From an uncultured Candidatus Binatia bacterium (GTDB taxonomy: Bacteria; Desulfobacterota; Binatia; UBA9968; JAJDTQ01), in NCBI GenBank assembly GCA_964291295.2, contig OZ219754.1:2528001-2592000 (forward strand): a stretch of DNA of 64,000 nt. The letters are read 5' to 3'. Position numbers and translations under genes: made by a program. The first letter of the stretch is position 1. Every line of letters starts with the position of its first letter. The notes under the pieces are model-generated. The model was given only the letters and a program-made list of their open reading frames with translations, did not search any database and was not told where the DNA came from. Shown here piece by piece: positions 298 through 58,048 of this stretch.

Positions 298-1869
298 TCA
301 GAAACGGAGGAACAGTTCGTCGGCGCCTTCGCTGGTGAGTTGCGAGAGGGTCGTGATCCGGTCGCTGAATTCCTTGAGCGTTCCCGGGGAGCTTTGACCC
401 ACGTCGATGAGAATGGAGAAGAGCGAGAAGCCGAGCCGGTCCTTCTCCCCGAGGAACCGTTCCGACCACTCTGCCGACACCTGGCACTCACCATCCGTGA
501 TGAAAACGATATCTCCCTTCTTGTAACGTGATTTTCCGAGGCACTCCAGGGCCGCGTCCAGAGGCTTCTCGAAGTCGGTGCCGCCGCCGGGAAAGTGCGA
601 CGCCAGATCCATGAGCCTGTCGGGCTCGATGGCCGCGCCCCGGCGGGTGGTCATGTCGAGGATGTGCAGGTCGGTCTCCCTGGACGAAAAGCAGATGGAA
701 CGGAACGGCCGGCGTTGGCGCCGCGTCAGGTCCAGCAGTGTCAGCGTCACGGCCTTGGACCACAGCTCCTTGTCTCCGGCCATGGAGGAGCTGCCGTCGA
801 GGCACACCACCACCGGGCCCTTGCGCCGCTCCTCCATGCCCCGGAGACTGTACTGCAGCAGCTCCCGCTCCAGCAGCCGCCGCCGGAAGTCCCGGCGCAG
901 CAACGGGTGGCGCAGCGTCACCAGCTCCTGGGGCAGCAGACGATCCAGGGCGCCCCCCTGCTCCACCGCATGGAGCTCATCGTTGGCCCGCTCGAAGGTA
1001 CGCCTGCGCAACGCCAGGGCATGGGACTTCATCCGGCCCACCATGCGGATGAGTTTCTTGAGCTTGTCGTTGCCGGCCAGCCGCCGCCCCAGTTCGAGCC
1101 TCCGGTCCGGGGGCAGGCGCCCCCCGGAACCCAGTGCGGAGCCCCACTGCTCGGCTTCCTCGGAGGCTTCCTCCAGTTTCCGGGCGGCGCGGACGGCCGA
1201 AGCCCGCACCCGTGCCCGAGCCTCGTCCTGGACGCGCTCCAGCTCCTCGACCCACTGGCGCCGCCCGTGCCGGATTGAGGCGGCGTGGCCCCGCAGCCTG
1301 CTCCGGAGTCGCTCCGCCAAGGCTTCGAGGGCCTCCTCCCTGCCGGCGCCGTCTTCCTGCCCGCCCAGTTCGGCGGCATGACGCAGGGTCTCGCGGGTCT
1401 GCCGGAAATCCTCCTCCTGCCGGTGCAGCTTCCAGGCGTCCATCATGTCGTGGCGCGTCCACGGCCTTTCGGACTTGAGCATGGCCAGGAGCCCTTCGCC
1501 CACCAGCAGCGTGCACAGGCCGGCCCTGGCCTCGTCGAGCAGCGTCATCTCCCGCAGGATCCGGCTCACCTCGCCGTCGTGCAGCGCGGTGAGAAGGGTC
1601 CGGTTGACCGCCGCGCTGGGGAGCACGTCGGACTCGTCGGCGAAGACGATGTTGTACTTGAACAGCAGGCGGAAGATGTCCTGCAGCAGCGACGGGAAGT
1701 GGGGCAGGAGGGTCTGGCCGGCGCGTTCCAGTTCCCGCAGGCTGGCCGCGTCCCGGCGCAGCAGTCCGTAGGCATGGCGGTCGTAACGGTCGCCCTCGAT
1801 CCAGTTGGCGTTGTCGGGCATTTCCGGCGGCGGTGCCGCGGGCTTCTTGCCGGAAGCGCGGCGGGCCAC
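298..1869 (-). CDS. VWA domain protein (ViaA-like partner of MoxR ATPase)
   Basis: C-terminal MIDAS motif CLDGSSSM, GGGTDF and FITDG; probable GTG start overlaps the stop of the upstream ATPase (alternative ATG at 1821). Confidence 0.85.
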   Translation of the reverse strand: MARRASGKKPAAPPPEMPDNANWIEGDRYDRHAYGLLRRDAASLRELERAGQTLLPHFPSLLQDIFRLLFKYNIVFADESDVLPSAAVNRTLLTALHDGEVSRILREMTLLDEARAGLCTLLVGEGLLAMLKSERPWTRHDMMDAWKLHRQEEDFRQTRETLRHAAELGGQEDGAGREEALEALAERLRSRLRGHAASIRHGRRQWVEELERVQDEARARVRASAVRAARKLEEASEEAEQWGSALGSGGRLPPDRRLELGRRLAGNDKLKKLIRMVGRMKSHALALRRRTFERANDELHAVEQGGALDRLLPQELVTLRHPLLRRDFRRRLLERELLQYSLRGMEERRKGPVVVCLDGSSSMAGDKELWSKAVTLTLLDLTRRQRRPFRSICFSSRETDLHILDMTTRRGAAIEPDRLMDLASHFPGGGTDFEKPLDAALECLGKSRYKKGDIVFITDGECQVSAEWSERFLGEKDRLGFSLFSILIDVGQSSPGTLKEFSDRITTLSQLTSEGADELFLRF

Positions 1870-2987
1870 TACAGGCCCTCCAGCAGGCGCTTCTGGATGG
1901 TCCGGACCTCGTCCCGCACCTCTTCCAACCGGGCCGCGGGCCGGTCCGCGTCGGCGGCCTTCTCCATGATCTGTTCGATCCTGGCGAGGAGGTTGCGGAG
2001 CTTGGCATGGGCCTCGATGAGAGCCTGGGAACGCAGCTCCTGGGTGTCCCAGGGGCGTTGCGCATATTCTCCGATCTCCCGGGCCTGGTACAGGAGCTCC
2101 CGGGCCTCCTGCTCGTGGCCGAGCACGGTCTCCCTGAGGATGGAGGCGACTTCGGCATGCTCGGACGGTTCCCGCCACAGGACATGCTCCAGGAACAGGA
2201 GGCTCCGATCCGAGACTTGGGCGTCCCCCGCCAGGTACGAATGCGCCTTCATGAGTGCCAGGGACTGGCGGTAGCGCCGGTCGGAGGCGACGATCTGCTT
2301 CCTGCCGAGCTGCCGGCGGACCTCGGCCATGGCCCTGGGGACGTGGCCGGGGACCGGTTGCGCCTCCGCCTCGCCTTGCATGGCGTTGAGTTCCGCCAGG
2401 GTGAGGGACACTTGGGCCGGCCGCGGCGGCGCCTCCAGCATGCGCAGGAAACGATAGTCTTCCTGGATGTAGTCCACCACGAAGCGGAGCAGGAAGCGGT
2501 CGTACAGCGCCGTCAGCTCGTCGTCCTCGGGAAGCTCGTTGCTGGCGCCGAACAGGGTGATGAGCGGCACATCGTGAACGTGCTGGCCATTGTGAAACCG
2601 GCGCTCGTTGATGAGGGTCAGGATCGAGTTCAGGATCGAGGAGTTGGCCTTGAAGACCTCGTCCAGAAAGGCGACGTGGGCTTCCGGGAGCTTGCGTGTG
2701 GTGACGCGCCGGTAATCGTCCCGCTCCAGCCCCTTGAGGCTCACCGCGCCGAACAACTCTTCCGGAGCGGTGAACCGGGTCAACAGCCACTGGAAGTAGC
2801 CGGCGCCCTCAATGCGCCGGCACAGTTCGTCCGCCAGCATCGATTTGGCCGTGCCCGGCGGGCCGATGATGAGCAGATTCTGAGCCGACAGCAGGGCCGC
2901 GAGCGCACCGTCGATGAGTTCGCTCCGTTCCAGGAACGTCTGTTGCAACTCCTCGCGAAGCGCCAGCAGTTTTTCCTTCGCCGTCAT
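1869..2987 (-). CDS. MoxR-family AAA+ ATPase (RavA-like)
   Basis: Walker A GPPGTAKS, Walker B FLDEVFKANSSILN, GASNELP, LYDRF. Confidence 0.9.
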   Translation of the reverse strand: MTAKEKLLALREELQQTFLERSELIDGALAALLSAQNLLIIGPPGTAKSMLADELCRRIEGAGYFQWLLTRFTAPEELFGAVSLKGLERDDYRRVTTRKLPEAHVAFLDEVFKANSSILNSILTLINERRFHNGQHVHDVPLITLFGASNELPEDDELTALYDRFLLRFVVDYIQEDYRFLRMLEAPPRPAQVSLTLAELNAMQGEAEAQPVPGHVPRAMAEVRRQLGRKQIVASDRRYRQSLALMKAHSYLAGDAQVSDRSLLFLEHVLWREPSEHAEVASILRETVLGHEQEARELLYQAREIGEYAQRPWDTQELRSQALIEAHAKLRNLLARIEQIMEKAADADRPAARLEEVRDEVRTIQKRLLEGL

Positions 2988-3237
2988 GCGGGAAACCGGT
3001 CGTGCATTCGCATTGTAACACTCGATTGTAACGGACAGGGAACCCGGACCGGAAACGACGCGGCTATGGGTGGCCGTGCATCCGTCCTCCCTCGCGAACC
3101 CTGCAATCCGGCGCCGTCCATGATGACTTCAGGTGGTGCGGATTCCGCCTCCGCTGATTCCAGGTTTCCGTATGGGGCGCCTGCGCTGCTCCTACTGTCT
3201 TCCGCTCAATCCGGCATCCGAACAGAGCGTCTTTCCC

Positions 3238-4485
3238 TCAAGCCTCCCAGAGCATCTTGACGGGCATCGCGAATAGTCCGGGGGCCGTGCGCTGAATCCG
3301 CTCGCCGTCGTGAAGGAGGATACCGCAGGCGAAGCTGCGGCCCACGGCCTCCTTCAGGCCCGAAGTCCGTTGAAGTCCCGGGGACGGGCCGTTGCCCCCG
3401 CCTTGACCTCGATCCCGACAATCGTGCCCGGGGAACGTTCAAGGACCAGGTCGATCTCGACGCCGTTCTTGTCGCGATAGTGGCTGACAGCCGTCGTTTC
3501 GTCCGAAAGAGCGATGGCTTTGGCGATCTCCCCGTGCACGAAACTCTCCAGAAGCGGTCCCAGTCTCTGGCGGTCCCGCGCGATATCCGCGGCGTCCGTC
3601 CGCAGCAGTGCCGCGAGCAGGCCGGAATCCAGAAACTGCAGCTTCGATGTCTTGACAAGCCGCTTCAACCGGCTGTTGTGCCAGGCGCGAATACGTCGGG
3701 TCAGGAACATGTGCTCCAGCAGGACGAGCCAGCGCCCCGCGGTCTTGCCGTCGACGCCAAGGTGCGCACCAAGGCTGGACATGTTGAGCAGCTGGCCTGC
3801 CGATACGGCCGCGTGGTCGATCAGGCGAACCATCTCGTCGCGCTTGCCGACAGGAGCGATATCCGGGACGTCGCGTTGGGCAAGCGCCCGCGTATAGGCG
3901 CGCAGCCAGGAGCGACGCCGTGTCGGGGTGGTGCGGGCAAGCGCCGCCGGAGACGATTCGCGGGATCAGACCGATGGTCGGCCCGGTTTCCTGGATGGCC
4001 GGAAAGTCGCCGGCAAAGGCCCGGTCGAGGAATCGCGGCGGGACGGAGCCGGCAATCTCGGCTTGGGAGAACGGCAGAAGATCGACGGTCTCGACGCGCC
4101 CGGCCAGTGAATCCGGAGAAATCGTGCTCCGGAACAGATCGACCGAGCCCGTGATCAGGAACCGTCCGGGGTCGGGACATTCGTCGACAATCTTCTTGAG
4201 CGCCAGGATCAGGTTCGGCGCGCGCTGGATCTCGTCGATGGCCGCACGTTGCAGCCCCCGGACGAAACCGGTGGGATCGTCCCGGGCGAACCGCCTGAAC
4301 GGGTCGTCGTCCAGCGAGACGAACGCGCGGCCGTCGTCATTGGCAACGCGGCGAGCAAGCGTTGTCTTGCCCGACTGCCGTGGCCCCACGATGGCGACAA
4401 TGCGGGTGTCGGCAAGCGCGAGGCGAACGGGCGCCTCGGCGTGCCGCGCCACATAGGTTCCGGCATGGGAGGTGTGGTTTTTCAC
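3238..4485 (-). pseudogene. AAA_14/DUF4143 ATP-binding protein, frameshifted
   Basis: GPRQSGKTT, IDEIQRAP, ITGS and SLAGR in ORF 3439-4512; DUF4143 part (KLQFLDSGL, HYRDKNGVEIDLV, GIEVKAG) in ORF 3354-3833; last residues in a third frame. Confidence 0.8.
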
Positions 4486-6981: not shown

Positions 6982-9784
6982 ATGACAGTGCCAATGGACT
7001 TCGACGATATTTTCAGATTGCTGACGGGACATCGGCCCTTTCGATGGCAAAAGCGCCTCTTCGAGGACTGGCTGTCTGCCGGAAAGCTTCCGTCAGCCAT
7101 CGACATCCCGACCGGCTTGGGCAAGACCGCCGTCATGGCGGTGTGGTTGCTCGCACGGGCAGTTGGCGCGAGCCTGCCCCGACGGCTGGTCTACGTTGTA
7201 GACCGCCGTTCCGTGGTGGACCAAGCGACCCGGTTCGCCGAACAGCTGCGCCGCAACATGCGCACCTTACCAACCGGCAGGTTGTCAAGTCTCGAGAACG
7301 GCACGGACGGGATGCCGATTTCCACTCTGCGTGGCGGATTCGTCGACAATCGCGACTGGCTCGAAAATCCTGTCACACCCGCAATTGTAATTGGGACCAT
7401 CGACATGATCGGCTCCCGGCTGCTGTTCGAAGGATACGGGGTGTCGCGGGCCATGCGTCCCTACCAAGCCGGCTTCCTCGGTGTTGATACCCTCGTCTTG
7501 CTTGACGAGGCGCATCTCTGTCCTCCGTTCGAAGCCCTCCTGCGCCAGATCGCGGATCGTCGCGATACAGACTTGGGCTCGGGACCGGATGATGGGAAGA
7601 TTACGCCGCCATTCCATCTGATCCCCTTGTCCGCGACGGGGCGGAACAGCACAGGGGGGCCGCCCAACTCCGTTTTCTGTCTCAATGATCGCGATCGCCA
7701 AGAGCCGGTCGTCCATCGCCGCCTCACCGCGCGAAAGCGGCTCCAGATCACGGAGCTCACGGATGTAGAAGATCTCGTGAAGCACATGGGCCACCGTGCA
7801 ATCGAGCTTGGTACCCGCGACACGCCGTCCCGCGTGATCGTCTACTTCGACCACCGTGTCCACGCGGTCAAGGCGGAGCAAGTGATCGAAAAGGAACTCA
7901 AGCGAAGACAGAGGGCAGGAGAGTTGGCGACGGACTGGGAAACGGAGCTTCTCGTCGGCGAACGTAGGGTACATGAACGTGCGGGACTGGAGCAATGGCT
8001 CGAACAGAGCGGTTTCCTTGGTGACTCCAAGTCTCAGCTGCTTTCACCGAGGTTCCTGGTAGCCACGTCCGCAGGCGAAGTGGGTGTGGACCTGGATGCG
8101 GATCACATGGTGTGCGACCTTGTGGCCTATGAGCGTATGGTGCAGCGACTCGGCCGTGTCAATCGACGGGGCGGCAGCGACCGAACCGCTTTGGTGGAAG
8201 TGTTCGCGGTACGCCCCGAGATCAGCGCCAATGCCGGTAAGGAAGAGAAGGAAGCACACGAGCGAACTCTCCAAATCTATAACCACCGATTGGCCGCGTT
8301 GTGCCATTTGCCTCGGGGTGACGATGGTCGCCAGGACGCCAGTCCATCGGCAACCGTCGTGCTGAAGCGCGAACACCTTGGGGTGGTGGAAGCGGCCACC
8401 ACCCCAGCGCCATTATATCCGGAACTGAACCGTCCACTCGTTGATGCTTGGTCCATGACGTCCCTCACGCAGCATGAAGGACGCCCCGAGGTCGCTCCGT
8501 GGCTGCGTGGCTGGGAGGACGAGGATGATCCGCAGACCCATGTGGTCTGGCGCAGGTATCTGCCAACTGTGCGTCAGGACGATACCATCTCAGCGCCGCC
8601 GGCCATGATCGCCGAATTCTTCCGGTCCGCGCCCATCCATGCGAGCGAAAAGCTCGAAGCGCCATCGAAGCGCGTGTTCGACTGGTTGCTCAAGAGAGTG
8701 GCTCAGATCGGTGAAGCCAGGCAGGACTCTGAACGGGCCATTACCGACGACGAGATCGTTGCGGTCCTTATGGACCACGCCGGCGAGCACCGACAGAGTG
8801 CAAGTCTCCGCGTCCTCCGGCGTCTGGCCACCCCCGCCAGTTCTCTGAGCAGGGATGAACAACGCGACAAGCGCGAGTGGACGGAACGGCTGCTACCTGG
8901 ATCGCTGATGGTGGTCGACGCAAGACTGCTCCGCGGCCTGCGCGACGGCATGCTTGATGAGAAGTCCGACTTCGAAGTCGCCTCCGCGGATGACGATGAC
9001 GATTGGCGACAACAGACAGAAGAGGAATATCCATCCATTGAATTGCCGCGTCCCCTGATCAAGTTTCGAGTGTACGAAATCGCTGGAAGCGAGGATGGCG
9101 AGGGAGTGGATACGGCCATCGCTAATACAGGCTGGCAGCATGTCCGGACCTTTGAGACCCGCATTGATGCCGGGGGTGTGATACGGGGCGGATTGGCCGT
9201 CTACAAGTGGTTCGACGACGCGGCGGACGAGGATTCCCGCTCCATATTGTCGGCGCCCCAAGCCTTGATCGATCATGCCACGGAAGCGGCGGCACGCACC
9301 CGCGACTTGGCGACGAGGCTGGGGCTGTCCGAAGAGGAAATCGAAGCGCTCACCTTGGCGGCGCGGATGCATGACGACGGCAAGGCCGCGACGCGCTGGC
9401 AGAACGCAATGAATGCGCCAAAGGACGGGCGTCCCTATGCCAAGACATGCGGCGGCGGAAACTGGCGTCATTTGGAGGGCTACCGTCACGAGTTCGGTTC
9501 GCTGCTGAGAGCGGAATTGGAAGAGTTACCGAATCAGACGCGGGACCTGATCCTGCATCTCATCGCGGCCCATCATGGCAACGCCCGCCCGTTCATTAGC
9601 GCCGCGGGTTGCGAGGACGGACCGCCCTCCCTGCTTGAGGCCAAGGCGGGCGATGCGGCATTGCGCTTCGCGCGGCTCCAGAAGCGGTACGGTCCTTGGG
9701 GACTTGCATGGCGCGAAGCCATTCTCCGGGCCGCAGACCAGAGCGTATCCCGTGAGTGGTCAACGCGGCACGGGAAACCGACGT

Positions 9785-46861: not shown

Positions 46862-46937
46862 TGGTGAGCCGTGCCGGGATCGAACCGGCGACCCTCTGCT
46901 TAAAAGGCAGATGCTCTACCTGCTGAGCTAACGGCTC
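46862..46937 (-). tRNA. tRNA-Lys(TTT)
   Basis: GAGCCGTTAGCTCAGCAGGTAGAGCATCTGCCTTTTAAGCAGAGGGTCGCCGGTTCGATCCCGGCACGGCTCACCA; cloverleaf, 76 nt, encoded CCA. Confidence 0.97.
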
Positions 46938-47203
46938 GCGCGCGGGAAGGCGGGAACGGCGACGGCGTAACAGCGAGGCTGGAACCGCGCCGCGGGACCA
47001 GCCGCTGAATCCAGCCACGTGGTTCATGCAATCTACCAGAGGGGCGCGCCGGCGGGCAAGCCGGATGCGCCGGGCGTCTACTCGTCGCATCGTCCCCGAT
47101 GCGTCAGGGAGGTTCCTTGCCGTCCGGGCCTCGCACCTGCACCGCGCAGGTGTCCCGTGTTGGCAAGCGGCCGGTGTTCGCGAGACCGAGAGGAGGGCTG
47201 CCG

Positions 47204-48292
47204 ATGCTGTTGATCACCGATGCCGACGTGAAGCAGGTGCTTCGGGTGGAGGATATCATCGACGACATGGAGCGGGCCTTTGCCGAAGAGGCGAGGGGCA
47301 TCGCCGTCAACCGGCCCCGGACCCGGTACAAGGTGCCCCCGGACCGGGACGCCGATGGCTACATGGCCAATATCATCCCGGGCGCGGTGCCGAGTTCCGG
47401 GGTGGCGGCGCTCCGCTACGACTCCATCGTCGTGCGCGAGCGGGTCGTGGACGGCCTCAAGCGCATGGACTACCCGTACCCCGCCCGCCGGAGCTGGGGC
47501 TTCGTACTGCTGTTCAGCCTTGAGGACGCTCAACCGCTGGCCCTCATCCACGACTTCAGCCTCTCCTCGATCCGGGTCGGCGCCACCACCGGCGTGGCCA
47601 CCCGCGCGCTGTCCCGGCCGGACAGCCGGGTGGTGGGGCTGTTCGGCTCGGGCAACGAAGCCGAGCAGAACCTGGCCGCCATCTGCGCGGTGCGGGACGT
47701 GCGGGAGGTGCGCGTGTACAGCGTGACCCGGGAGCACCGGGAACGGTTCGCCATGGAGATGACCGGCAAGCTGGACGTCCGGGTGCGTGCGGTGGACAAT
47801 GCCCGGGCAGTGGTTGAGGGCGCGGACATCGTCATGTGCGCCACCAACGCCAGCACGCCGGTATTCCAGGGCGAATGGCTGGAACCCGGCCAGTTCGTCA
47901 CCACCATCGTCAACAGCGACGGGGTCCACCGGCGCACCGAGGCGGACGCCGCCACCTTCCTTCGGGCCGACCTGATCGTGCTCAACAACCGGGAGACCGC
48001 CCTCACCAACCAGCAGCGGGAGATGCTCGATCTCATCGACGAAGGGAAGATCGGCTGGGACGGTATCTGCGAACTGGGCCAGGTGCTGATCGGCGAGAAC
48101 CCCGGACGCAGGAACAGCGACGACATCATCTACTACAAGAGCAACACCGGCGTCGGCATCCAGTTCGCCGCCGCCGGCGCGGTGATCCACGAAGAGTGCA
48201 AAAAGAGAGGACTCGGCCGCGAACTGCCCACCGAGTGGTTCGGCGCCGACCTGAGCGAATGGCTGGACAAGGGCTACTCGCCATCCCCGTAG
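47204..48292 (+). CDS. Ornithine cyclodeaminase/mu-crystallin family protein
   Basis: RVGATTGVA, GSGNEA, ADIVMCATN, GVGIQFAA. Confidence 0.85.
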   Translation: MLLITDADVKQVLRVEDIIDDMERAFAEEARGIAVNRPRTRYKVPPDRDADGYMANIIPGAVPSSGVAALRYDSIVVRERVVDGLKRMDYPYPARRSWGFVLLFSLEDAQPLALIHDFSLSSIRVGATTGVATRALSRPDSRVVGLFGSGNEAEQNLAAICAVRDVREVRVYSVTREHRERFAMEMTGKLDVRVRAVDNARAVVEGADIVMCATNASTPVFQGEWLEPGQFVTTIVNSDGVHRRTEADAATFLRADLIVLNNRETALTNQQREMLDLIDEGKIGWDGICELGQVLIGENPGRRNSDDIIYYKSNTGVGIQFAAAGAVIHEECKKRGLGRELPTEWFGADLSEWLDKGYSPSP

Positions 48293-48354
48293 GGCGGGGC
48301 TGTAGCGCTTGGCCAGCGAACGGGCCGCGGCTGCGGGAGGTGGGGGGAGTTTGT

Positions 48355-48590
48355 CATGTGATCGTCGATTCCAGCACTTGGTGCGGCGCTGGTTACGTGG
48401 AGGTGGGTTCGAATCTGGGCACTGTGGTGTCCACGGTCTCGGGCGAGGGCTCGACACGGCTCTTTCAGTCGCCCACGACCCGCGGCTTTCCCTCCGCGTC
48501 GAGAACGATTGAATTGGAAATTCCGGTCAACGCCGCCTCGCCCGTCTCCTCTGCCCGTGATGTGTAGAACGGAAATCCGCGACCAAGCCG
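48355..48590 (-). pseudogene. Remnant of the C-terminal PD-(D/E)XK nuclease domain of an AddA/UvrD-like protein
   Basis: LTGISNSIVLDAEGKPRVVGD*KSRVEPSPETVD, then a shifted frame HSAQIRTHL; resembles a D..I...VVDWKS...Y.AQ...YL pattern. Confidence 0.45.
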
Positions 48591-48639
48591 TTCCGGATCG
48601 TGGCGATTTCGAGGAGCTACCCTGCCCGAATGACGCGTC

Positions 48640-51600
48640 CTATTGGAGGGCGAGTATCTCCCGCGCTCGGACGCGATCGAGTTGAGCGTGTGCAAATTGA
48701 TTGCGGTAGCTCCGGAGGCACCCGTAGCAACTGGAGTCGCAGCCGCAATTGCCCTGGACGCGCTCTCTTGCAGCACGAATGACTTTCTCGAAGACCTCCG
48801 GCTGTTCAAGCTGCGCCACCAGCCCGGCACCACCTGGCACATTGTCGTAAAGTACAATCGCCGACTCTCCGGGCTGGTCGCCGCCGGTTATGGTGACGTT
48901 CAGATCGGTATCCGGCACTTCCAGCGTGTCCGCCGCGCCCTGCAGGATCGCGTAAGCGACCGAATACGCCTCCCACTCGCCATCGACCCTCGGAAACTGA
49001 AGGCGTACGACGTCGGTGGCCAGTTCGTGGCCGAGAGAGAATCGCTCCAGGGTTCCGTAGCAGTCCGAGTTCGAGGGCGACTTGTGGCTGGCCTGCGGCT
49101 CCACCATGTGTGCGCCGCAGGAACGGCAGATGTAAAAGCCTTTCCTGTTTCGGCCCTCACACAGGATAATGAGTACTCCGGGAACCGCCCTCGTCACCTG
49201 TATTACGTCCAGCATGGTCCTGCTCTCGGGTTGTGCGTCAGCGTCGAAACCGCGGAAGAAGGGTCGCGTCGTGTACAGGCGCTGCGCGCGCCCACCCGGC
49301 TCGGAGGGTTTCTTGAACGGAGCCACAAAGCCGAACTCGGGAATGAGGTATTTCGGTTCGTCCGATGGTGCGTCGGTGGCGCCCTCGTTCCATTGACTGA
49401 AGTTACGTGCATCGTCATATTGATAATGACGTACGGGCCATGCCTTGCCCGCGACCACCTTGACGCCGCAGGATTCCCATTCGAGCTTGTTGGCAATCAC
49501 CTTGCTACCGGGAGCGTACTCTGCGATCGCTTGCGACAGATCTCGCTGGAGCGAGACGCCGGTCGATTGGCCATCAGTGGGGCGGATATCGAGTTCAACG
49601 ACATCCACCGGAAATCCGTATTTCGGAATGACGGCCTTTCGGGAGAGGAAGTTGAGCGTCCGTTCCTCCGCGATGGTCTTAATGCGCCTGCCAATGCGCT
49701 CGACCATACGATCTTTGCCTTGCTTGAAGTATTCCCGGCGTAGAGTCTCCATCGCAATAAAGTCCGCGCTCACTTCCTGCTCTGCGAGAGCAAGGCGGCT
49801 GTCTTTGCCAGCGATCTTCACAACCCAGGCATCGTCGCCGAGACCGACCCGCTCGTGCATGTTCTCCGGGGCGATGCAGCGTATCGTTTCTTTCAACTGG
49901 TTGTTGCTTTCGCAAAAGCTGAACAGATCGGTTGTCGCCTTAGGCGCGTGCCAGTCGCCGACAAAGGTATCGACCTTCTGGAATCTGCCCCGGTCTCTCT
50001 TGAAGAATTCGGACAAGGCGACGGCAGCCATATGGCGCAGAACGATCTTTTCGTTCGTCATATGCAGGCGCGGAGGATGAATGGCACCGGCTATTATTCG
50101 GTCGACGGGATTTTCGTAGTGATATAGGTCGTGAGGATTGCGGCGGCAATAAGTCAACACTAAGCCAGGCGTTTCTCGCCGGCCGGCGCGCCCGGCGCGC
50201 TGAGCGTAGTTGAATGCTTCCGGAGGGACATTGCGGAGAAATACCAAATCCAGATCGCCAAGGTCTACGCCGACCTCGAACGTGGTGGAGGAACTCAGAA
50301 GGTGGATGCCGCCGTGCTTGAAGCGCTCTTGCCTCCGGCGCGCTTCCTCGGCATCGATCTGCGCTGTATGTTCTTCGGCACGCAGTTCCGGCGGCAGCAA
50401 GGGGCTTTTATAGAGCATTCCATAGTGATTGTCGGCGAGGCGTTGTTGCTGGACTGGTGCGAGGGTACCGGGGCAGCGGTATCTCGGGCAAACGCCTCGA
50501 ACGTTGTGGCTGCTTACGGTTGCACAGGTGTCACATTCCCATAAGTCGACGAAATTGGCAGGCTTGATGCGAAGCCAACAGGAACTGAGCCGGAACGTGC
50601 CGTTTCCCTTTGCAGGCACCAGCAGGGGGTCGCGGTTACGTTCGCGCACTGCTCGCCATACCTCTTTCATCAGTTCTATCGACGCCGACTGTTTGCAGTC
50701 CCCGGACAGGTCGCTGTCCACGAGTAATCGGCGAAGGAAATGCGTCACGATGGCGGATTGCGGGCCACCCCATTGTCGGATACCGCGCCGCCCGCCCGGC
50801 GGCGCAATGCTGAATGCCTCCTGGCGCCGAGGAGAGATATCGTTCCATGCTGGCGTTCCGGCACCTTCGGGCAGATTGATGGCGCGGCTCGGGCGCATTT
50901 CATCCAGCAGGTAGCCGACCAGAACGCGTGCCTCGATTTCGGTGAGGTTCCATGGCGGTCGCCGAACCGCGTCCGGCAAACGCAAGTCCCGGGGCAATGC
51001 GACGAACCATCTGACCAGCCCGACGCCGGCAAGGGACAGCCTCTTCTCCTCGGTCATCGCCTCGCGCAGGATGGGAGTGAGCACTCGGCGGATTCGCTGC
51101 TCCCGAGTGTCCGCTTCACCGAACAGCCCGGCCGCGTCCCACTCCCGGAGCAAACGGTTTCGGAGGTCGTCGATCGACAGTCCTTCCTCGGCTACTGGTT
51201 CGGACATGGCCCTGAGAATGAGATTCCGGTCGCGCAGCTTCCCGTAAGAATCCTCGGCGTACCAAGCGAAGAAAGCGGCCTCCTGTCGGCTGTCGGCGAA
51301 AGTAAGGATCTTGCGTCGACCTTTTGGCAAGCGTTCGTGAAGGGCGGTCGCGATTACGGCATTCGGTCCGTCCGATCCATGCACGATTTCCTGAACGGGG
51401 TCGCGGACCCCGTTGTGCCCGTAGTCGCAGGCTACGCACTGCTTCAGTTGGTCCGAATTCTGTTCGTGTGAATCGCACTTCTTCACGGGTATCGCTGCAC
51501 GGCAGCCGCAGCTAGGCGCCGACCTCGACAGAGTGCCGCAGCGTTTGCACAGCCATTGGTCTCCGTCCTCCGCCGGCAGGTAGTAGTCGACACCGAATCC

Positions 51601-52845
51601 CGTTTGGCTTGGATCGCGGACGGCTTCCTTTAGCTTTCCCCCATGCTCACGACCGACGTAGTAGTGTTGGCCACATTCGCGACAGAGTGCGATTTCAAGC
51701 GGTTCGCCAGCGGCGCCCTCTCCGCCCTCGCGCTTGCGATTGAGCACCACGGTATCGGCACCGTCTCGATGTACGAGGAAGGCGCCTTCGAGCGCGCGGA
51801 GAAAGGCGTGGTAGCGCCGGGGACGTCCGTCGCTATCGGTTTGAGATTTCCCAAGTATTATGGAAGACGGTGAGAAGCATTCTCCGAAAAGTTCTCCAGC
51901 AAACTCGGCCACCTCTTTCTTGTCTTCGCCGCCCTGGCTGGAGGTAATGGTCGCGCTGGTGGCGATGCATCGGAACGAACCGAGTCTTCCCCCGTCACGT
52001 AGGCGCTGCTTGAGGCGTCGGATCAGCATCCCCATCTCCATGCCCTTGGCGCCGCGATACTGATGCGCCTCATCGAGGACGATGAACTGCCAATGCGTAC
52101 CTTTTCCGGCGTCGAACAGGGGGCTGTCGTCGGGACGGATCAGCAGGTACTCCAGCATTGAGTAGTTGGTCAACAGGATGTGTGGGGGTGACTCCCGCAT
52201 CTCGTCGCGAAAGACGAACTCCCCGGGCAAGCGGTCCTCAGCGCGCGCGGCGGCGTTTCGCCATCCGTCCCTGGCGTTTTCCGGCGTCTGGCCGATGTAC
52301 TGCCCGAATGTCGGCTCGAAATCGGACCCTGCGGCCCGCAAATTACCGCAGATTTCGCCTAGCCGCTCGCGCTGGTCGTTTGCCAGCGCGTTCATGGGGT
52401 ACAAGATCATCGCCCGCACGCCCGGCTTTTCGATCTCTCCGGCGAGATGCTGGCGATAGAGTTCAAACAGGATCGGGTAGAGGAAGCTCTCGGTCTTGCC
52501 GCTGGCGGTGCCGGTTGCAACGACGACGTTGAGTTCATCGATATGCGTGGCGCGGATGGCGCGTTCCTGATGCGTGTACAGCGGGCGATCAAGCAGTGCG
52601 GGCAACAGCCCCTCGGCTCCATCCGGGAAACATTCGGCGGCCAGCATGTGTGCATGCAGTCCTCTCGCGAACTCGCGCTGGGGTTCGGGAAAGGGCCCCT
52701 TCAGAAGGCTTCCTTCCTCACCCAGGGCTTTCTGGAAGGAGTCCCGCAAGAGAGGTTCCTTGAAGAAGAACGAAGTCTTCAGGTAATTCTCGTAGCTCTG
52801 CCGTATTCTCTCGGGCCAATCCTGTATGTCGATATCAGGCATCAA
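48640..52845 (-). CDS. Large SF2 DEAD/DEAH helicase with C-terminal DUF1998 Zn domain (DruE-like)
   Basis: [68 protein letters not shown]; C-terminal YDNVPGGAG...CxCxxxCxxC; several internal CxxC pairs. Confidence 0.9.
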
Positions 52846-55159
52846 GCATGCTCCTGATTAAATCCACGTTGGTCTGATGCGAGGTTCGCCGGCGCCTGTC
52901 AATGGGGATGGAACGTTCCACTGCTTCCGTCAATGTCAAGCCGGCCGCCTCGAACTCGCCGGGGCTGAACCCCTTTCCGATTCGCCATCCACTTACGGGA
53001 GATATGACGTGAGGCCGCGACTGATTGACGGGCCTGGGTGGCGAATTGACGGTAACCGTTACGCTCCTGATGATGTCCTCCAAGCCGGCAACGGATACGG
53101 TGAGCGTGTACCGGGTGGTGCGGGCGGGGCGGACGGTGCAGATGCCGTCGGTTTCGACCGCACCTATATCAGGTTCAAGGGCCACACCGGCGTTGCCCGT
53201 GTTCCGGGTTGCCCATTTCAGGGTCGTTTCCTCACCGTCGAAAAGTGTCGCCGATTCCGACTCGAACAAAACGATCTCAGGCAAAGGATCCGCGACAACG
53301 ACGATGAGCGATACGACTTCCCCGGCCCATTCCACGTTGAAATGGGCTTCGGCATTCAGTCTCTGGTCGATCTGGGCGTGGTCGACGAAGTGATCCAAGG
53401 GGATTGCGATGCGGTCTTCCTGGATCTTTCGGCTGTATGGCAGAACCTGTTGGTCGTCGAACCCTGCGTGAACCGATGAGCACCGTTTCGACAGGATCGA
53501 CAGCGTCATCCCGGCGTAGGCATGGTTCCTGAATTCCTCTCGCGTCATGATGAGCGGCGTGTCGTGCCAGTCGCCAGGATCGGTCTCGCCCTTTTCCAGT
53601 CGCCACCAGATTCGGGGAAGTTCGAGGACAATGCTCACGTCAGGCGCACCGGATCCGAGGCTGCACGATACCCGGTCCGCGCCTGGATGCGCCGGGACGC
53701 TGATGGCACCAGAAGGCAGCGCTGTCTGACAGGCCTCGACCGGGAGGATGGCGGGAAGTATCGAACCGTCCACACCAACAAGTCGTAGCACGGTGATCGG
53801 GTATCCCGTCGGCGGCGGTACGAGCAGCGTGTCTTGAGTGTACTCGACCCCGTTGACCTCGACCCGTCCCAGGTCGCCGACATACCGGAATGCCAGGCTG
53901 TCGAGCATGCTCATTTCCCGATCGTAGACCCGGAGAAAAAAGCGACCCTCCTTGCCGTTCAGAACTGTCGAAAGCGCCTTCTGCTTGGGGCAAAAGTTCT
54001 GTCCCCAGCCGACTTTAGTCTCCTCACCGACCCGTGCCCATGCAATGTCCGGTGAACGTTCGAGAACGGGCGGATGGCCAGCAAATAGCATTCCGTCATC
54101 GGAGTCATCGTAGATGTACTGTCCGGTCAGTTTGATACTGGAGGGTGTCAAGGGACCAGCCCACTCGCAGAAGCCATCGACAAACTCGGCTGCAGTGTCT
54201 GCGTCCCGGTAGAAGTAGTGCGCCCGGAAGTCCGGATCGTCACAGCCGTCAGATTCAACCGGCGCGTTGCCCGTTCGCTGCCACGTTCTCGGCGCGATGA
54301 CGATGAAGTGTCCGCTGGTGATTCCGGACATTCGGCGCCCACTGCCAGCCCAGTTTTTTTGCACCTTGAAAATGAGTGGGACGCCTTCAAACAGCGCAAC
54401 GTCGTGTTCCTTCTTGTCCCGAGAGGAAACTGTCACGCGACCCTTCAGCGACGGGATGCGGCATTGCCCGTCGGCAAAATCCAGAGACTCGTCATTGAGA
54501 CGTACCGCCGCGACCTCACATTCCTTGTCGGCATACAGGATGACCTCCCACCTCGCAGATTCGGGAGCCTTTCGGCAGAGCAGTTCCAGGCGGGAAGGCG
54601 GAGGGCGTCGCGGTTCCGGTTCCGGGTTGCCCGGACGTCCGTTTCGTTTACCACCTATTTCCCGCGGTTCCTTGGCCCCCTCATTGCCCTTGGCAATGCC
54701 GTCCGATTCGTTGCTTTCCTGTTCCACAGGGGGCTTGGGTTGATGGTGTTGGTCATCCTCAGTCGTCTGTGATGTGTCCGTGGACGACTCGTCGGGCTCG
54801 CCTTCTACGGGATTCGTAGAAGGCAGATCTTCGGCTCCGACGATCAGCGGAAGAGGAAGTTTGTGTTTGTGCGGGTCGGGACCGGATGCCGGTTCGACAG
54901 GATCAGCCCCCGGTTCGGGATGTCGAGGTTCATCGTCGAGCGGCCCATCCTCTGGTTGATTACCAGGGGGTTCTTCGGGTTCGTCCGAGGCTTTGGGATG
55001 AGCCTCGTCCCCCTGTGGCCGATCCTGTGTCGAGATCGGCAAGGGTTCGGACGTTGGACGCGAGGTGGTCGGGCTGGCAGGTGATGCGAGAGTCCTTACG
55101 AAAGACCATCGAGATTTCACCCATGCCAACAGGCCCTCGAATAACGATGTCATACCCAT
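52835..55159 (-). CDS. Uncharacterised multidomain protein: disordered N-terminus, beta-rich core, Ig-like domain, C-terminal eL13 (L13e)-like domain
   Basis: Long ORF overlapping the helicase start; C-terminus [40 protein letters not shown]; start placed at the first Met outside IS630. Confidence 0.75.
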
Positions 55160-55299
55160 CAACGGGTTAGTTTTCCATAGAAGGCATGAATTTGCAACGC
55201 GAAATTCCCACAACTGACGTTCTCCGAACTTGTAGACGGGAACCGGAGATGCGGCGAAGATCGTTCTACGACGCCGGATTGCATCTCTCCGGTGACTTA

Positions 55300-56420
55300 T
55301 ACACAGCGACTTAAGTAATGCCGCATAATCCTGGAGGAAGCAATTATAGGAAAGAGAGGAGGGATGCGGCATGAGAAGGCTTGAGATAACGGAAGCGGAG
55401 GTGATGGGCATGGCGATACAGCAGGAAATCCAACGGTCGGAGGAATCGCGGTACGACCATCGGCTTCATGGCTTGTTGTTGGTGGCAGGTGGCCAGAGTT
55501 GCCGGCAGGTGGCGCGGTTGTTCGATGAGGATCCGCGTACGGTGCAGCGCTGGGTGCGCACCTTCGAGCAGCGGGGCTTTGCCGGGCTGCGCGAGGGGGA
55601 GCGGAGCGGTCGTCCGCGGTCGCTCACATCGGATCAGTGGTCTTCGCTGGAAGGCGACCTGCGCCGCCGGCCGGACGATTTCGGTCTGGTGGGACATCTG
55701 TGGGATGGCAAGCGGGTGGCGGAACACTTGCGGCGTCGTTACCGAGTGGAATTGGGTGTGCGACATTGCCAGCGGCTATTCCGGCAGATGGGATTCCATC
55801 TCCGGAAGCCACGACCTAAATTGGCGCTGGCGGACCCGCTGGGCGTGGATGGGTTTAAAAAAACTGCGTCGCTTGGCGAAACGCCGGGACCTTGAACTGT
55901 GGAGCCAAGACGAATGCCACTTTCAACGCCACGGCACCCGCTGCCGCGTATGGGTGCCGCCCGAGGACAAGGACCCGGTGGCCCGTCACGCGCCGACACG
56001 CCAATCCGCCGCCTGCTTCGGCGCGGTGAGTTTGCACAGCGGCAAGTTCGTCCACGCTTTTTCGCCGGTGTTCAATGCGGTCACCTTCGAGACCTTCCTG
56101 AAGAGCCTGCTACGCCGCCGTTCGCGCAACAAAAAGATGGTTGTGGTTCTCGACAATGCGCGCTACCACCACGCCAAACTTCTCAAACCTCTGCTCGACA
56201 CCCATCGGGTGCATCTGGAATTGTGGTTCCTGCCGCCCTACAGCCCGCAACTCGCTCCTATCGAACGGGTCTGGAAACTCACCCGGCGCCTTGCCACCCA
56301 CAACCTCTACTTTGGCAGTCTCGACGAGTTGCTCTCCACCGTCGAAATCTGTTTCGCCCAGTGGCGAAAACCCAATGTCATATTGCAACGTCTATGCGGT
56401 ATTACTTAAGTCGCTGTGTA
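55300..56420 (+). mobile_element. IS630-family insertion sequence, apparently intact
   Basis: 28-bp IRs TACACAGCGACTTAAGTAATGCCGCATA / TATGCGGTATTACTTAAGTCGCTGTGTA with 1 mismatch; TA flanks at 55298-55299 and 56421-56422. Confidence 0.92.
55371..56409 (+). CDS. IS630 transposase split over two frames at TTTAAAAAAAC
   Basis: HTH ORF 55371-55895; DDE ORF with QDECHF, VLDNARYH, LPPYSPQLAPIERVW. Confidence 0.88.
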
Positions 56421-56474
56421 TAATTCCATTCTCCACAAGATCATAAACCGCAATGCCAGGCATAAGTCCTATAA

Positions 56475-57590
56475 TCAGAACAGGTCCGGAAACACCTCGT
56501 TCGGGATCTCCCGTCCGACTCCTTGGCTCCTGGCCGCTTCGTAGACTCTCCCGGCCAGGGCGGTGAACTGGAGTCCGAAGCCGACGCTGTTGTTGAAGCA
56601 GGTGATCTGGGCAGGGTCGGTTCGGCCCGGGTGGCGCCCCAGCAGCAGGTCCGGCAGGTCCGGGGCATTGGTCCAGTCGATCTCCACGGCGTCGCCGGGG
56701 GGATAGCCTTTTTCGATATCGAGCAGGATCCGTGGCGGCAGCGGGGCGTGCTGATTCCGGGCGACAAGGGTCGTCGGCCCGAGGTTGTCCCTGGAATTGA
56801 CCGCGAGAACGTCGAAGCGGCCGAAGGTTGCGGGGGCGATCTCGCAGTGGCGCACCGAGCAGACGTGCATCCCGGGCTCGAGCCAGTCGGTCCGGATGAC
56901 CGGCGTCAGGGCGTTGGTGGCAATGACGACGATGTCGCTGCCGCGCACGGCGTCCTCGGCGCGCGCGACGGCGTTCAGGTCCGGGCAATGCCGCCACCGG
57001 GGGTTCTGGACAAAGCGCTCGCGGTGCGAGGGGTCGGGGCTGAAGACGCGAACCGACCTGATGCCGGGCAGGGTGTGCATCAGGGCGTCCAGGTGCGCGC
57101 CGGCCATGAAGCCGGTGCCCAGTACGCCGGCGCTGGCGGCGTCCGCCCGGGCCAGGTGTCTGGCCGCCAGAGCGGCGGCGGCTCCCACCCGCAGGTTGCG
57201 GATGTGTCCCTCGCTGATGAGCGCCAGCAGGTCGCCGTCCGCCAGGTCGAACAGCATCAGCAGGCCCCGCGTGACGCTGTGACTCCGCCGGGTGCCGGGA
57301 GTCCGGTCGCGGCGGAAGCTGCCGTCGCGCTCCTGCCAGAAGAGCTTGTCGGTGAGAAACCGGATGGCGGCGTACTTCCGCGTCGAGGCCGACATGGTCT
57401 TCAGGCTGTGGGCGCCCGGCAGCGTGTCGCCCTCCTCGTTCACGTAGGAATCGGGTGTGAGCAGGTCGATTCGGGGGCTGGTGATGCAGGCTCCGGTGCC
57501 GAGGTCCCGGTAGGCTTCCTCAAGGGCGGACAGGCTCATGGGCATGTCGAGGAGTTGCTGCGATTCGGCGTTGTCGATGGCGAGTACCAT
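56475..57590 (-). CDS. Ornithine cyclodeaminase/mu-crystallin family protein
   Basis: RVGAAAALAA, GTGFMA, SDIVVIATN, GFGLQF. Confidence 0.85.
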   Translation of the reverse strand: MVLAIDNAESQQLLDMPMSLSALEEAYRDLGTGACITSPRIDLLTPDSYVNEEGDTLPGAHSLKTMSASTRKYAAIRFLTDKLFWQERDGSFRRDRTPGTRRSHSVTRGLLMLFDLADGDLLALISEGHIRNLRVGAAAALAARHLARADAASAGVLGTGFMAGAHLDALMHTLPGIRSVRVFSPDPSHRERFVQNPRWRHCPDLNAVARAEDAVRGSDIVVIATNALTPVIRTDWLEPGMHVCSVRHCEIAPATFGRFDVLAVNSRDNLGPTTLVARNQHAPLPPRILLDIEKGYPPGDAVEIDWTNAPDLPDLLLGRHPGRTDPAQITCFNNSVGFGLQFTALAGRVYEAARSQGVGREIPNEVFPDLF

Positions 57591-58048
57591 GAGGCTCGAT
57601 CCTCCGTGCCGGCTGCGACACCTCGTCCGGTCCGTGTCGGAAGCGGCGATGTTCCTCGAACGGTTCCGTGTTGTCAACTTGAGTCCGCTTGAGTCCACTT
57701 GAACGACCATGCCGCAGGGTCGGCTGTCAAAGGCGCTGATTGTCAAAGGCTGTCAAAGGCGATCCGGCTCTCTTTCCGGTCGATGTTCGATGTCGATACG
57801 GTCTTGATGCGGTCGGTCCGAATCGTATCGAACCCGGCCTTCCGAGTTCTCACGGTCCTTGTTCCCCCGTGTCTTGTCCTCTGCCGTTGTCATCTGCCCT
57901 TGTCCTCTACTATTCCGCACCGGGTTGCGGTATGTTCCCGGAACGAAATGGCTCTCTGGAACAGGCCGGGATGTTTTCCGGTCGGGATGTCTTCCGGCCA
58001 GAATGTTTTCCGGCCAAGGTTTCCGGCAGCCCGTCGACGAGGTGTGAA

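Follow-up and report, generated by a model that had tools for sequence, protein, structure and literature searches.

A compact DruE-type helicase and an undescribed partner family with exchangeable ribosomal-protein tails form a probable Druantia III-B-like module

Analysis of the window, that is, the whole stretch of 64,000 nucleotides studied here, revealed a gene pair encoding a compact helicase without nuclease domains and, upstream of it, a member of a large undescribed protein family. Judged by sequence, this partner stands in the place of DruH, and its C-terminal module is swappable among relatives, which carry eL13, uS9, uS5, zinc fingers or other small modules at this position. By analogy, we consider it probable, with some reserve, that the locus is a Druantia III-B-like, horizontally moving two-gene module, with anti-phage defence as its most likely role. 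The original prediction had called the system undescribed; this holds for the partner family with its exchangeable tails from ribosomal proteins, which are new here, but not for the helicase, whose type has already been described as III-B-like.

Gene organization and boundaries of the locus

The features of the locus are collected in Table 1. Both genes lie on the minus strand and the helicase start overlaps the partner stop by 8 nt, in agreement with the overlapping, co-oriented pair first described. The partner start at 55159 was also retained, as the alignment with 32 homologues begins there. A longer ORF of 858 aa starting at 55411 was rejected for the partner because that start lies inside the IS630 element on the other strand. 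The helicase has the same length as the protein on record for the window.

Table 1. Positions of the genes, partner regions and mobile element within the window.
Feature	Position	Strand	Basis or remark
Helicase gene	48640..52842	-	1400 aa, compact DruE-type (YprA/MrfA family) SF2 helicase
Partner gene	52835..55159	-	774 aa, undescribed family, upstream of helicase
Partner residues 1-22, conserved N-terminal amphipathic helix (MxxTxxxxxLxxxVKxxW)	55094..55159	-	Alignment
Partner residues about 23-184, acidic Pro-rich linker, presumed disordered, poorly conserved	54608..55093	-	Composition, gappy alignment columns
Partner residues 185-711, conserved core, chain of Ig/FN3-like beta-sandwich domains	53027..54607	-	
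Partner residues 712-774, eL13 (ribosomal protein L13e)-like basic tail	52838..53026	-	
IS630-family insertion sequence	55298..56422	+	DDE_3 match and terminal inverted repeats
Acquired or replaced block (helicase, partner, IS630)	48292..56476		blastn, gene content of relatives, GC drop

The locus is inserted among metabolic genes, as originally noted, with PrpD, PEP mutase/ICL and an ornithine cyclodeaminase on the left-hand side and a second ornithine cyclodeaminase paralogue, an AMP-binding enzyme and UbiD on the right-hand side. A blastn search with the window showed that both flanks are kept at 83-84% DNA identity in two genomes of the same genus, in which homology ends at 48291 and picks up again at 56477. 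The same slot in these genomes is filled by two metabolic genes, one for an amidohydrolase and one for an FAD oxidoreductase. Because the flanks are conserved and the relatives' slot holds other genes, the intervening block represents a replacement or an insertion. The lower GC content attributed to it at the outset is apparent over positions 48500-56500 (0.57-0.62 versus 0.65-0.71 in the flanks).

An IS630 element and a nuclease remnant had been proposed as the bounds of this block, and only the former was found. The ORF 55468-56409 encodes a transposase with a DDE_3 match (E = 5.5e-31), and 30-nt inverted repeats with one mismatch (about 55298-55327 and 56393-56422) and TA at the ends assign the element to the IS630 family. 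No nuclease family was recognized in the stop-to-stop frames of 48293-48639 or in the scanned flanking ORFs. The insertion sequence is located ~140 nt upstream of the partner start, within the low-GC acquired block but outside the two-gene module, and its insertion may have cut the partner off from its native promoter.

Conservation and distribution of the gene pair

A comparison of gene neighbourhoods, proposed with the original prediction as a check, revealed strictly conserved linkage of the pair. In 28 of the 33 loci compared, both genes share a strand and the helicase start lies between -16 and +167 nt from the partner stop; in the remaining five, the contig ends in or just after the partner gene (three loci) or the match is a partial one of 68 aa (two loci). 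Linkage is still seen where the partners are as little as 22-25% identical. The partner core and the helicase show correlated pairwise identities (r = 0.974; 91 pairs from 14 loci), and the partner is the less conserved protein in 90 of the 91 pairs. A two-gene operon with conserved linkage and the partner upstream is the arrangement of type III Druantia. No third conserved gene accompanies the pair, the largest shared family among 319 neighbouring ORFs being present in 3 loci.

The distribution of the partner is patchy. Among 24 other genomes of the genus, one contains a match to the whole protein and another a match to just the 53-aa tail; no whole-protein match was found in 16 genomes from two other families of the order. 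Of the 20 loci scanned for context, 7 have restriction-modification or other defence-type genes nearby and 3 have mobile-element genes. Half of them (10) have neither, and the pair in the window has metabolic neighbours, which counts against a defence role. The two-gene module is horizontally acquired, self-contained and mobile.

The helicase is a compact DruE

The helicase is DruE-like, as predicted. It is a large SF2 enzyme with DEAD (6.7e-17), Helicase_C (6.6e-10) and MZB (6.6e-14; residues 1297-1377) matches in Pfam, laid out as RecA1 (DEAD), Zn-ribbon insertions, RecA2 (Helicase_C) and a C-terminal MZB/DUF1998. The SF2 motifs (GTASGKT, DEAH at 257, SAT at 296 and QRAGRAGR at 881), CxxC pairs, six in number, and C-terminal DUF1998 reported beforehand were all recovered. 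Seven DruE models of PADLOC matched with E-values from 1.3e-151 to 3.2e-105 (DruE1, 1.3e-151; DruE3, 7.6e-138); the DrmA and DpdJ matches are weak and confined to the core motifs. Among known structures, the helicase matches the 2108-aa DEAD/DEAH box helicase of PDB 9tu7 (3.2e-72) and YprA (PDB 6znp; 5.6e-21).

No nuclease family (PLD, Vsr) appeared in the Pfam, NCBIfam and PADLOC output for the helicase, and since the protein ends 24 residues past the MZB, it has no nuclease domain. A protein of 1400 aa in which the MZB is the last domain has the build of the III-B-like enzymes, which are compact and devoid of PLD and Vsr nucleases. Table S1 of Bell et al. 2025 (PMC12458937) labels close homologues of the helicase as III-B-like, namely MDE2915500.1 (80% identical), MCY3726502.1 (73%) and MCY4421422.1 (69%), and by this proxy the helicase is placed in the III-B-like clade of the YprA tree. 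On the basis of these matches, it is of a known type, a compact, nuclease-less DruE.

The resemblance to 6znp and the MZB also give the helicase the build of MrfA, and this, together with the metabolic neighbours in the window and in several loci, would suit a housekeeping DNA-repair module made of an MrfA/YprA-like helicase and an accessory factor, with no part in defence. Such a role is highly improbable. It is at odds with the occurrence of the whole partner in 1/24 other genomes of the genus and 0/16 of two other families, the low GC content and IS association, the different genes in the relatives' slot, the restriction-modification neighbours at several loci and the faster evolution of the partner than of the helicase. 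In section 5 and Table S1 of PMC12458937, moreover, Bell et al. assign the helicase to the defence branch.

The partner family differs from DruH

A search for homologues of the partner found 113 proteins, and the family comprises 1024 clusters at 50% identity (E ≤ 1e-3). A full-length DruH match, named with the original prediction as evidence that would count against it, was sought with PADLOC and hhalign and none was obtained. None of 49 family members matched the PADLOC DruH models at E ≤ 0.01, and the window partner matched no PADLOC model even at E ≤ 10; E. coli DruH matched 10 DruH models, down to 1.9e-20. Alignment of the family profile with a 30-sequence DruH profile in hhalign gave probabilities of 0.3% and 1.2%, and the best BLASTP match between E. 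coli DruH (1119 aa) and the partner was not significant (E = 0.18). PF27205 is present in 41 of 42 DruH homologues versus none of the 113 partner homologues according to precomputed annotation, by which PF27205 and PF27201 were both judged (DruH itself gets 0 matches in the Pfam set run directly). By the markers of DruH, that is, PADLOC DruH3, PF27205/PF27201 and the STY4851/ECs_5259 family, the partner does not belong to it.

AlphaFold2 modelling of the partner build gave pLDDT values of 91.2 and 85.6, and the model of residues 180-774 is almost wholly beta, without a helical domain. Fold searches with the models yielded Ig/FN3-like matches only, and neither the structure model nor these searches detected an enzymatic fold in the core. 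The DruH structure 9tud is absent among the fold matches listed, which come from a library that may not contain it. The 184-aa N-terminal region carries a net charge of -20, with 37 D+E and 32 P, and the linker is presumably disordered given this composition. A TM-like segment is found at the N-terminus of 53 of 141 family representatives and is lacking in the window partner (maximum hydropathy 0.63); the N-terminal helix is read as membrane-associating, and many relatives have a clear TM helix at this position. The model and fold searches agree with the build first proposed, consisting of a disordered acidic N-terminus, a beta-sandwich core, an Ig-like domain and an RNA-binding-like tail. DruH consists of a helical N-terminal domain, six Ig-like domains and a helical C-terminal domain; the partner does not have this build, and its Ig-like array gives a partial resemblance.

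The partner might instead be a very diverged, shortened DruH that lost the helical head and swapped its C-terminal domain, in which case the locus would be an ordinary Druantia III-B. [quoted passage not shown] Ig-like arrays, however, are common and no proof of shared descent. The partner also has neither of DruH's helical terminal domains, and the PADLOC, hhalign and PF27205 results given above speak against this origin, which we regard as rather unlikely.

Ribosomal-protein tails

The tail of the window partner matches eL13 in NCBIfam (PRK12277; 2.7e-12), a match that is partial and therefore below the whole-protein cut-off. Against the Pfam eL13 model it scores 24.1 bits, with a cut-off of 24.9, and relatives pass at 26.3-38.3 bits. 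The sequence of the conserved segment and the fold both identify the tail as an eL13 domain, with a net charge of only +2 (9 K+R in 63 aa). Compared with eL13 itself (PF01294; PRK12277), the partner keeps just a conserved segment of 60-70 residues, which in this bacterium is joined to 700 aa of protein unrelated to ribosomes. eL13-tailed partners also occur in proteobacterial genomes. To our knowledge, eL13 is absent from bacterial ribosomes.

Relatives of the partner carry other modules at this position. uS9 tails were identified with Ribosomal_S9 E-values of 1.3e-12 and 3.8e-11, above the Pfam cut-off, and also 2e-10, and uS5 with TIGR01021 (4.9e-28) and S5_C (3.7e-19). The matches extend over the greater part of both ribosomal proteins, taking in model positions 23-144 of 156 for uS5 and 1-94 of 121 for uS9. 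Non-ribosomal tails include C2H2/BED-like zinc fingers and other small Cys-rich or basic modules. Of the best 150 family representatives, 64 have an eL13 tail and 76 another kind of tail; 10 are truncated. The capture of three different ribosomal proteins at the same position is unusual in itself.

Proposed function

By analogy with what has been published on DruH and DruE, the partner would act as a sensor or adaptor. Its swappable tail may bind the invader's exposed nucleic acid (single-stranded or forked DNA, or RNA), and its conserved Ig-like core may contact the helicase, which would then load on 3' single-stranded DNA and unwind replication or recombination intermediates. Neither a nuclease nor another effector domain was found in the two proteins; as no nuclease is recognizable in either, clearance would proceed by unwinding or blocking alone, or via host nucleases. 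We infer nucleic-acid binding by the tail from the role of such domains in ribosomes; the modest net charge of the eL13 tail speaks against it. Protection against phages by the pair is likewise putative. P. aeruginosa DruH is described as bringing DruE to forked DNA in the accessible part of a preprint (10.64898/2026.05.13.724313). The published accounts of DruH, to the extent of their accessible text, conflict, presenting it as an ssDNA binder without nuclease activity, a 3'-5' exonuclease or a protein sensor, so that the analogy of the partner with DruH stands on unsettled ground.

A bolder version of the sensor model, which we hold to be quite unlikely, sees in the partner a new class of membrane-tethered infection sensor with repeatedly captured ribosomal domains (eL13, uS9, uS5) as its sensing tip. 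The trigger would be RNA, RNA-DNA hybrids or translation-linked events at genome entry, not DNA forks as for canonical DruH-DruE. Until nucleic acid displaces it, the acidic linker would keep the basic tail covered.

The module could also act on RNA or translation as such, with the ribosomal tails docking on rRNA or ribosomes, or serving as decoys that draw off phage factors directed against ribosomal proteins, and the helicase working on RNA or ribosome-bound complexes. Three different bona fide ribosomal domains at the same position in one family, with matches over most of uS5 and uS9, are consistent with this idea. Yet the commonest tail, in 64 of the 150 best representatives, is eL13, a protein foreign to bacterial ribosomes as far as we know, and zinc fingers and other non-ribosomal modules occupy the same position. 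In mature ribosomes, the small subunit already contains uS5 and uS9, and their sites would hardly be open to a fused copy. The characterised DruE and YprA helicases, moreover, act on DNA in the accounts accessible. We find this explanation very doubtful, and a DruH-like sensor or adaptor is retained as the preferred role of the partner.

Druantia is among the commonest helicase-based anti-phage systems. Its mechanism was not resolved until 2026, and then for type III-A alone, in which DruH is the partner. As this locus shows, much of the III-B-like helicase clade goes with a partner family other than DruH, one of about 1000 clusters at 50% identity. Current defence finders overlook this partner and hence, at best, list loci of this kind as DruE orphans. 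With its constant Ig-like core and varying tip, the family offers a natural domain-swap experiment on what a Druantia sensor reads. Neither the family nor its tails are mentioned in the literature searched (full text, Druantia papers), to which the supplements of bioRxiv-only preprints may add.

Comparison with known systems

The accessory genes of Druantia I, II and IV and of DISARM (DruA-D; DruM, F, G; the type IV partner; DrmA, B, C and a methyltransferase) were not found beside the helicase, given that the partner matches no PADLOC model and no third gene is conserved. The tie to DISARM is a shared helicase superfamily only. The MrfA/YprA repair helicases (6znp) share the RecA1-RecA2 core and the MZB Zn-binding domain, but are of about 750 aa, without Zn-ribbon and helical insertions, and have the MrfB exonuclease as partner or stand alone; section 5 of PMC12458937 places them in the repair branch of the tree of Bell et al., not in the defence branch.

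The helicase core aligns with that of Druantia III-A (E. coli and P. aeruginosa DruH-DruE; PDB 9tu7-9tuc, assigned to DruE by sequence match, and 9tud for DruH), and the window helicase is 36-39% identical to segments of E. coli ATCC 8739 DruE. In III-A, the partner is likewise upstream in the operon, and DruH has an Ig-like array and a C-terminal part implicated in nucleic-acid binding. By contrast, III-A DruE is about 2100 aa long with two C-terminal PLD nuclease domains, as stated in the accessible text of PMC12458937, whereas the window helicase ends at the MZB.

The type III system of M. smegmatis (MSMEG_1253, DruH, 1132 aa; MSMEG_1254, DruE, 1667 aa) is, from what PMC13316683 describes, the sole experimentally tested one with a nuclease-less DruE in the literature searched. 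Compared by that description, it too is a two-gene overlapping cassette with a compact DruE in which only DEAD, Helicase_C and DUF1998 are annotated; it differs in its full-size DruH and in a helicase about 270 aa longer.

Closest to the gene pair in the window are Druantia III-B, given as a compact, PLD-free DruE together with DruH in the accessible part of Himpich et al. (2026 preprint; 10.64898/2026.05.13.724758), and the III-B-like systems. The words 'ribosomal', 'L13e' and 'DruH' are absent from the main text of PMC12458937, and its Table S1 lists helicases only. The helicase family and clade are the same, without a nuclease domain on the helicase, as are the upstream, overlapping partner in a two-gene unit and the patchy, mobile distribution. 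The difference resides in the partner, which is not DruH by any sequence test run. DruH measures about 1120-1130 aa and has a helical head and a helical C-terminal domain, both missing from the 774-aa window partner; partners of the window type, unlike DruH, combine a membrane-associating N-terminus and an acidic linker with a swappable ribosomal-protein or zinc-finger tail.

Genomic setting of the gene pair

The locus comprises two co-oriented genes, the upstream one encoding the partner protein and the downstream one the helicase, with the start of the helicase gene overlapping the partner stop by 8 nt. The length of the helicase is the same as that of the protein on record for the window (P0117). 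A mechanical listing of open reading frames extends the partner up to 55411 (858 aa). This longer form is spurious, because the Met encoded at 55159 is where the alignment with 32 homologues starts, and the 84 extra codons enter an IS630 element.

Features of the locus and its flanks
Feature	Position	Strand	Description
tRNA-Lys (UUU)	46862-46937	-	1.35 kb left of the block
Ornithine cyclodeaminase/mu-crystallin paralogue	47099-48292	+	left flank of the block
Helicase gene	48640-52842	-	1400 aa; downstream gene of the co-oriented pair
Partner gene	52835-55159	-	774 aa; upstream gene of the co-oriented pair
IS630-family element	55298-56422		DDE_3 transposase match (5.5e-31) and inverted ends
Ornithine cyclodeaminase/mu-crystallin paralogue	56475-57746	-	right flank of the block

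The GC content of the region between about 48500 and 56500 is 0.57-0.62, compared with 0.65-0.71 on either side, in agreement with the original prediction of a less GC-rich block. The orthologue of the left ornithine cyclodeaminase is kept in all 27 other genus genomes searched (80-90% DNA identity). In two of these 27 genomes the slot region was compared with the window; homology ends at 48291 and restarts at 56477, with 83-84% identity in both flanks. In these two relatives the stretch between the flanking paralogues holds genes for an amidohydrolase and an FAD-dependent oxidoreductase (loci L048, 3745-6681, and L049, 4024-6939), and in one of them also for an IS630-like transposase. The homology break and the different gene content of the relatives thus define 48292-56476 as a replacement at a variable slot, at which the window genome has lost both enzymes. 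The neighbourhood is metabolic, as originally described, and includes PrpD, PEP mutase, the two ornithine cyclodeaminase paralogues, an AMP-binding enzyme and UbiD. The nuclease remnant that was said to bound the block was not found in the frames of 48293-48639 or in the flanking ORFs scanned. Integration targeted to the tRNA-Lys gene was considered and rejected, since the block lies 1.35 kb away on the 5' side of the tRNA, with an orthologous gene retained by the relatives in between.

The IS630 noted earlier is present, its DDE_3 match being accompanied by inverted ends of 30 nt with one mismatch, read from the sequence at ~55298-55327 and ~56393-56422. The transposase is encoded in two overlapping frames (55371-55895 and 55468-56409); an A7 run (55857-55863) close to their junction suggests programmed frameshifting. 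The element lies ~140 nt upstream of the partner start, and its arrival may have shifted the partner promoter away or substituted for it. A promoter and terminator scan was uninformative, with four promoter-like sites, against 2.2 expected, and none upstream of the partner.

The helicase

The helicase contains the Pfam domains DEAD (91-302), Helicase_C (820-890) and MZB/DUF1998 (1297-1377), together with the motifs GTASGKT, DEAH (257), SAT (296) and QRAGRAGR (881) and six CxxC pairs, in line with the SF2 motifs, several CxxC pairs and C-terminal DUF1998 read from the sequence at the outset. Its predicted likeness to DruE is borne out by seven DruE models of PADLOC, which match with E-values from 1e-151 to 3e-105. 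The solved relative closest by sequence is the 2108-aa helicase in PDB entry 9tu7 (3.2e-72). The C-terminus lies 24 residues past MZB, and Pfam, PADLOC and NCBIfam scans revealed no nuclease family; in Bell et al. (2025; PMC12458937), helicases of the type III-like branch are described as most often devoid of a nuclease domain. The protein belongs to a large, tightly conserved group of ~1400-aa proteins, and is a helicase of a known, already catalogued kind. A second DruE-like helicase ORF is found in the same genome outside the window (G000:C1:2293853-2296849; 1805 aa, 37-49% identity over core segments), and may represent another Druantia-type system.

The partner protein

Residues 1-22 of the partner form a conserved amphipathic helix, followed by an acidic, proline-rich stretch (residues 23-184); the whole N region has a net charge of -20 and 32 prolines, consistent with the N-terminus first described. 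Distant relatives begin with an unmistakable transmembrane helix, after which come Lys/Arg residues and a charged linker. A transmembrane-like segment is found in 53 of the 141 partner representatives with a complete N region, and also in one same-genus relative. In long forms of the partner (P0311, P0314, P0367 and P0361; 1173-1582 aa) the N region is greatly extended, and P0361 has an N-terminal DUF4389 domain (1.3e-17). At the opposite end, the last 63 residues match the archaeal L13e model of NCBIfam (2.7e-12) and score 24.1 bits with the Pfam eL13 model, slightly below the cut-off, which relatives exceed. On these profile matches the tail can be assigned as a true eL13 segment, as proposed originally.

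The operon layout and the Ig-like array of the partner would fit a much diverged, shortened DruH, the companion of DruE in Druantia type III. All sequence tests are contrary to this interpretation. The full-length match to DruH profiles that the original prediction had allowed for was not found: a threshold as loose as E<=10 gave no PADLOC match for the window partner, and none of 49 family members (four plus 45 more diverse ones) matches DruH, three of them giving weak matches of the N-terminal hydrophobic segment to unrelated models. DruH of E. coli ATCC 8739, taken from its annotated locus, was matched by ten DruH3 models (E = 0 to 1.9e-20). When this DruH and the partner were compared by BLASTP, the best E-value was 0.18. 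Alignment with hhalign to a DruH profile (30 sequences) yielded a probability of 0.3% for the partner core (25 sequences) and 1.2% for core and tail (113 sequences). In precomputed Pfam annotation, PF27205 is present in 41 of 42 DruH homologues versus 0 of 113 partner homologues. The helical domains of DruH are also missing. A diverged DruH is therefore rather unlikely, and nothing in the sequence of the partner identifies it as DruH. The DruH structure 9tud, present in the PDB sequence set but possibly outside the fold library, was absent from the 50 Foldseek matches listed and from two other PDB fold listings, which has no bearing on the question, and the ESM Atlas look-up of the partner gave no usable match.

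Variation of the C-terminal tail

Other members of the family carry different tails. A uS9 tail is found at loci L021 (1.3e-12) and L028 (3.8e-11), both over the Pfam cut-off, and in protein P0335 (2e-10), the NCBIfam model being PRK00132; the tails at L029 and L033 are of the same type by sequence alone. Protein P0110 ends in both domains of uS5 (S5_C, 3.7e-19; TIGR01021, 4.9e-28), and C2H2/BED-like zinc fingers are located at L030, L031 and L036. Among the further types are one rich in Cys, His and Trp (CSTCDHAR...WCRR) and one that is helical and basic; neither these nor the other remaining tail types were assigned to a family in Pfam scans. The top 150 family representatives have 64 eL13 tails, 76 others and 10 incomplete ones. 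Non-eL13 clusters comprise 21 zinc-finger, 19 uS9, 16 helical and 15 Cys-rich members in a mixed set of 265 tails, which contains close homologues and in which cluster sizes are not frequencies.

The property common to the tails would be nucleic-acid binding. eL13 is not known as a component of bacterial ribosomes. Because of this shared property and the foreign nature of eL13, we favor the view that the tail is a nucleic-acid-binding module acquired by capture; docking to the ribosome or a role as decoy is less likely. A function directed at RNA or the ribosome appears improbable.

Two loci of the same genus show related arrangements. L040 (genome G023, 1240-3459, +) encodes a partner homologue of 41% identity with a transmembrane-like N-terminus, a basic, coiled-coil-like tail replacing eL13, and an overlapping helicase gene downstream of it. 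L041 (genome G008, 148-1686, +) encodes a 512-aa protein in which a long acidic repeat region precedes an eL13-like tail (PF01294, 2.9e-6, over the Pfam cut-off); it has no Ig-like core, and the eL13 module with its acidic linker therefore also stands alone in this genus.

Conservation and distribution of the pair

Among 1.84 billion representatives, the partner core profile retrieved 1024 clusters at E<=1e-3 (clustering at 50% identity), of which the stricter limit of E<=1e-30 leaves 762. Thirty-three loci were studied, one from genomes and 32 from metagenomes. The conserved linkage on which the original prediction was staked is present in 28 of them, where a helicase homologue on the same strand starts -16 to +167 nt from the partner stop. 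At L010, L034 and L035 the contig ends within or just past the partner, and L037 and L038 are partial 68-aa matches. Linkage is retained at 22-25% partner identity and 41-46% helicase identity. Pairwise identities of partner and helicase correlate over 14 loci (r = 0.974), and in 90 of the 91 pairs the partner has diverged further than the helicase, a comparison that is descriptive only, the loci being mutually related. No conserved third gene is common to more than three loci.

Within 5 kb of the pair, restriction-modification or other defence-type genes occur at 7 of 20 loci (L011, L014, L016, L017, L022, L030 and L032) and mobile elements at three (L020, L024 and L025); the remaining 10 have housekeeping neighbours or none with a family match. 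Among 40 relatives, the partner is present in one other genus genome only (41% identity), and one further genus genome has just the eL13-like tail, on another protein; no match was obtained in the 16 genomes that represent two further families of the order. The distribution is mobile and patchy and defence neighbours are frequent; that the pair is a housekeeping repair module is very improbable. At L032 (851-12507) the pair is located inside a type I restriction-modification operon, with HsdM and a Fic protein upstream and HsdS downstream. At one distant locus, L017, a predicted pPIWI-associating nuclease (pP_pnuc_1, 3.4e-30; 7985-9229, +) lies directly downstream of the helicase.

Proposed mechanism and relation to Druantia

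The published accounts of DruH, all on type III-A, are not fully in mutual agreement: DruH binds ssDNA between Ig5 and the C-terminal domain in competition with ATP (10.64898/2026.05.12.722862), is a 3'-5' exonuclease whose C-terminal domain brings DruE to forked DNA (10.64898/2026.05.13.724313), or is a likely infection sensor (10.64898/2026.05.12.724681). Defence in M. smegmatis requires DruH-DruE contact, according to PMC13316683. The partner described here combines a probably membrane-associating N-terminus with a linker, an array of Ig-like domains and a small exchangeable module at the C-terminus, and it evolves faster than the helicase to which it is strictly linked. We infer a defence function in which the partner would take the part of DruH. 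Nucleic acid of the invader, where exposed, would be bound by the tail, while the conserved core would hold the helicase, which might then move 3'-5' and dismantle replication or recombination intermediates.

Neither the partner family nor its ribosomal-protein tails were found in print by full-text literature searches and by term searches in the main texts of Druantia papers. PMC12458937, 10.64898/2026.05.12.724681 and 10.64898/2026.05.13.724313 do not use the word "ribosomal" in their main texts, and "L13" does not occur in 10.64898/2026.05.13.724758; Table S1 of Bell et al. (PMC12458937) contains helicases only, and Table S2 helicase domains only. The two genes make up a genuine module, conserved and mobile, in which a helicase of the Druantia III-B-like kind is joined by a new partner analogous to DruH. 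Its novelty resides in the partner family and the ribosomal-protein tails, the helicase being already known. Type III-B is described, in 10.64898/2026.05.13.724758, as a compact DruE without PLDs plus DruH. Compared with that system, the helicase here is likewise without a nuclease domain, whereas the protein at its side is not a recognisable DruH.
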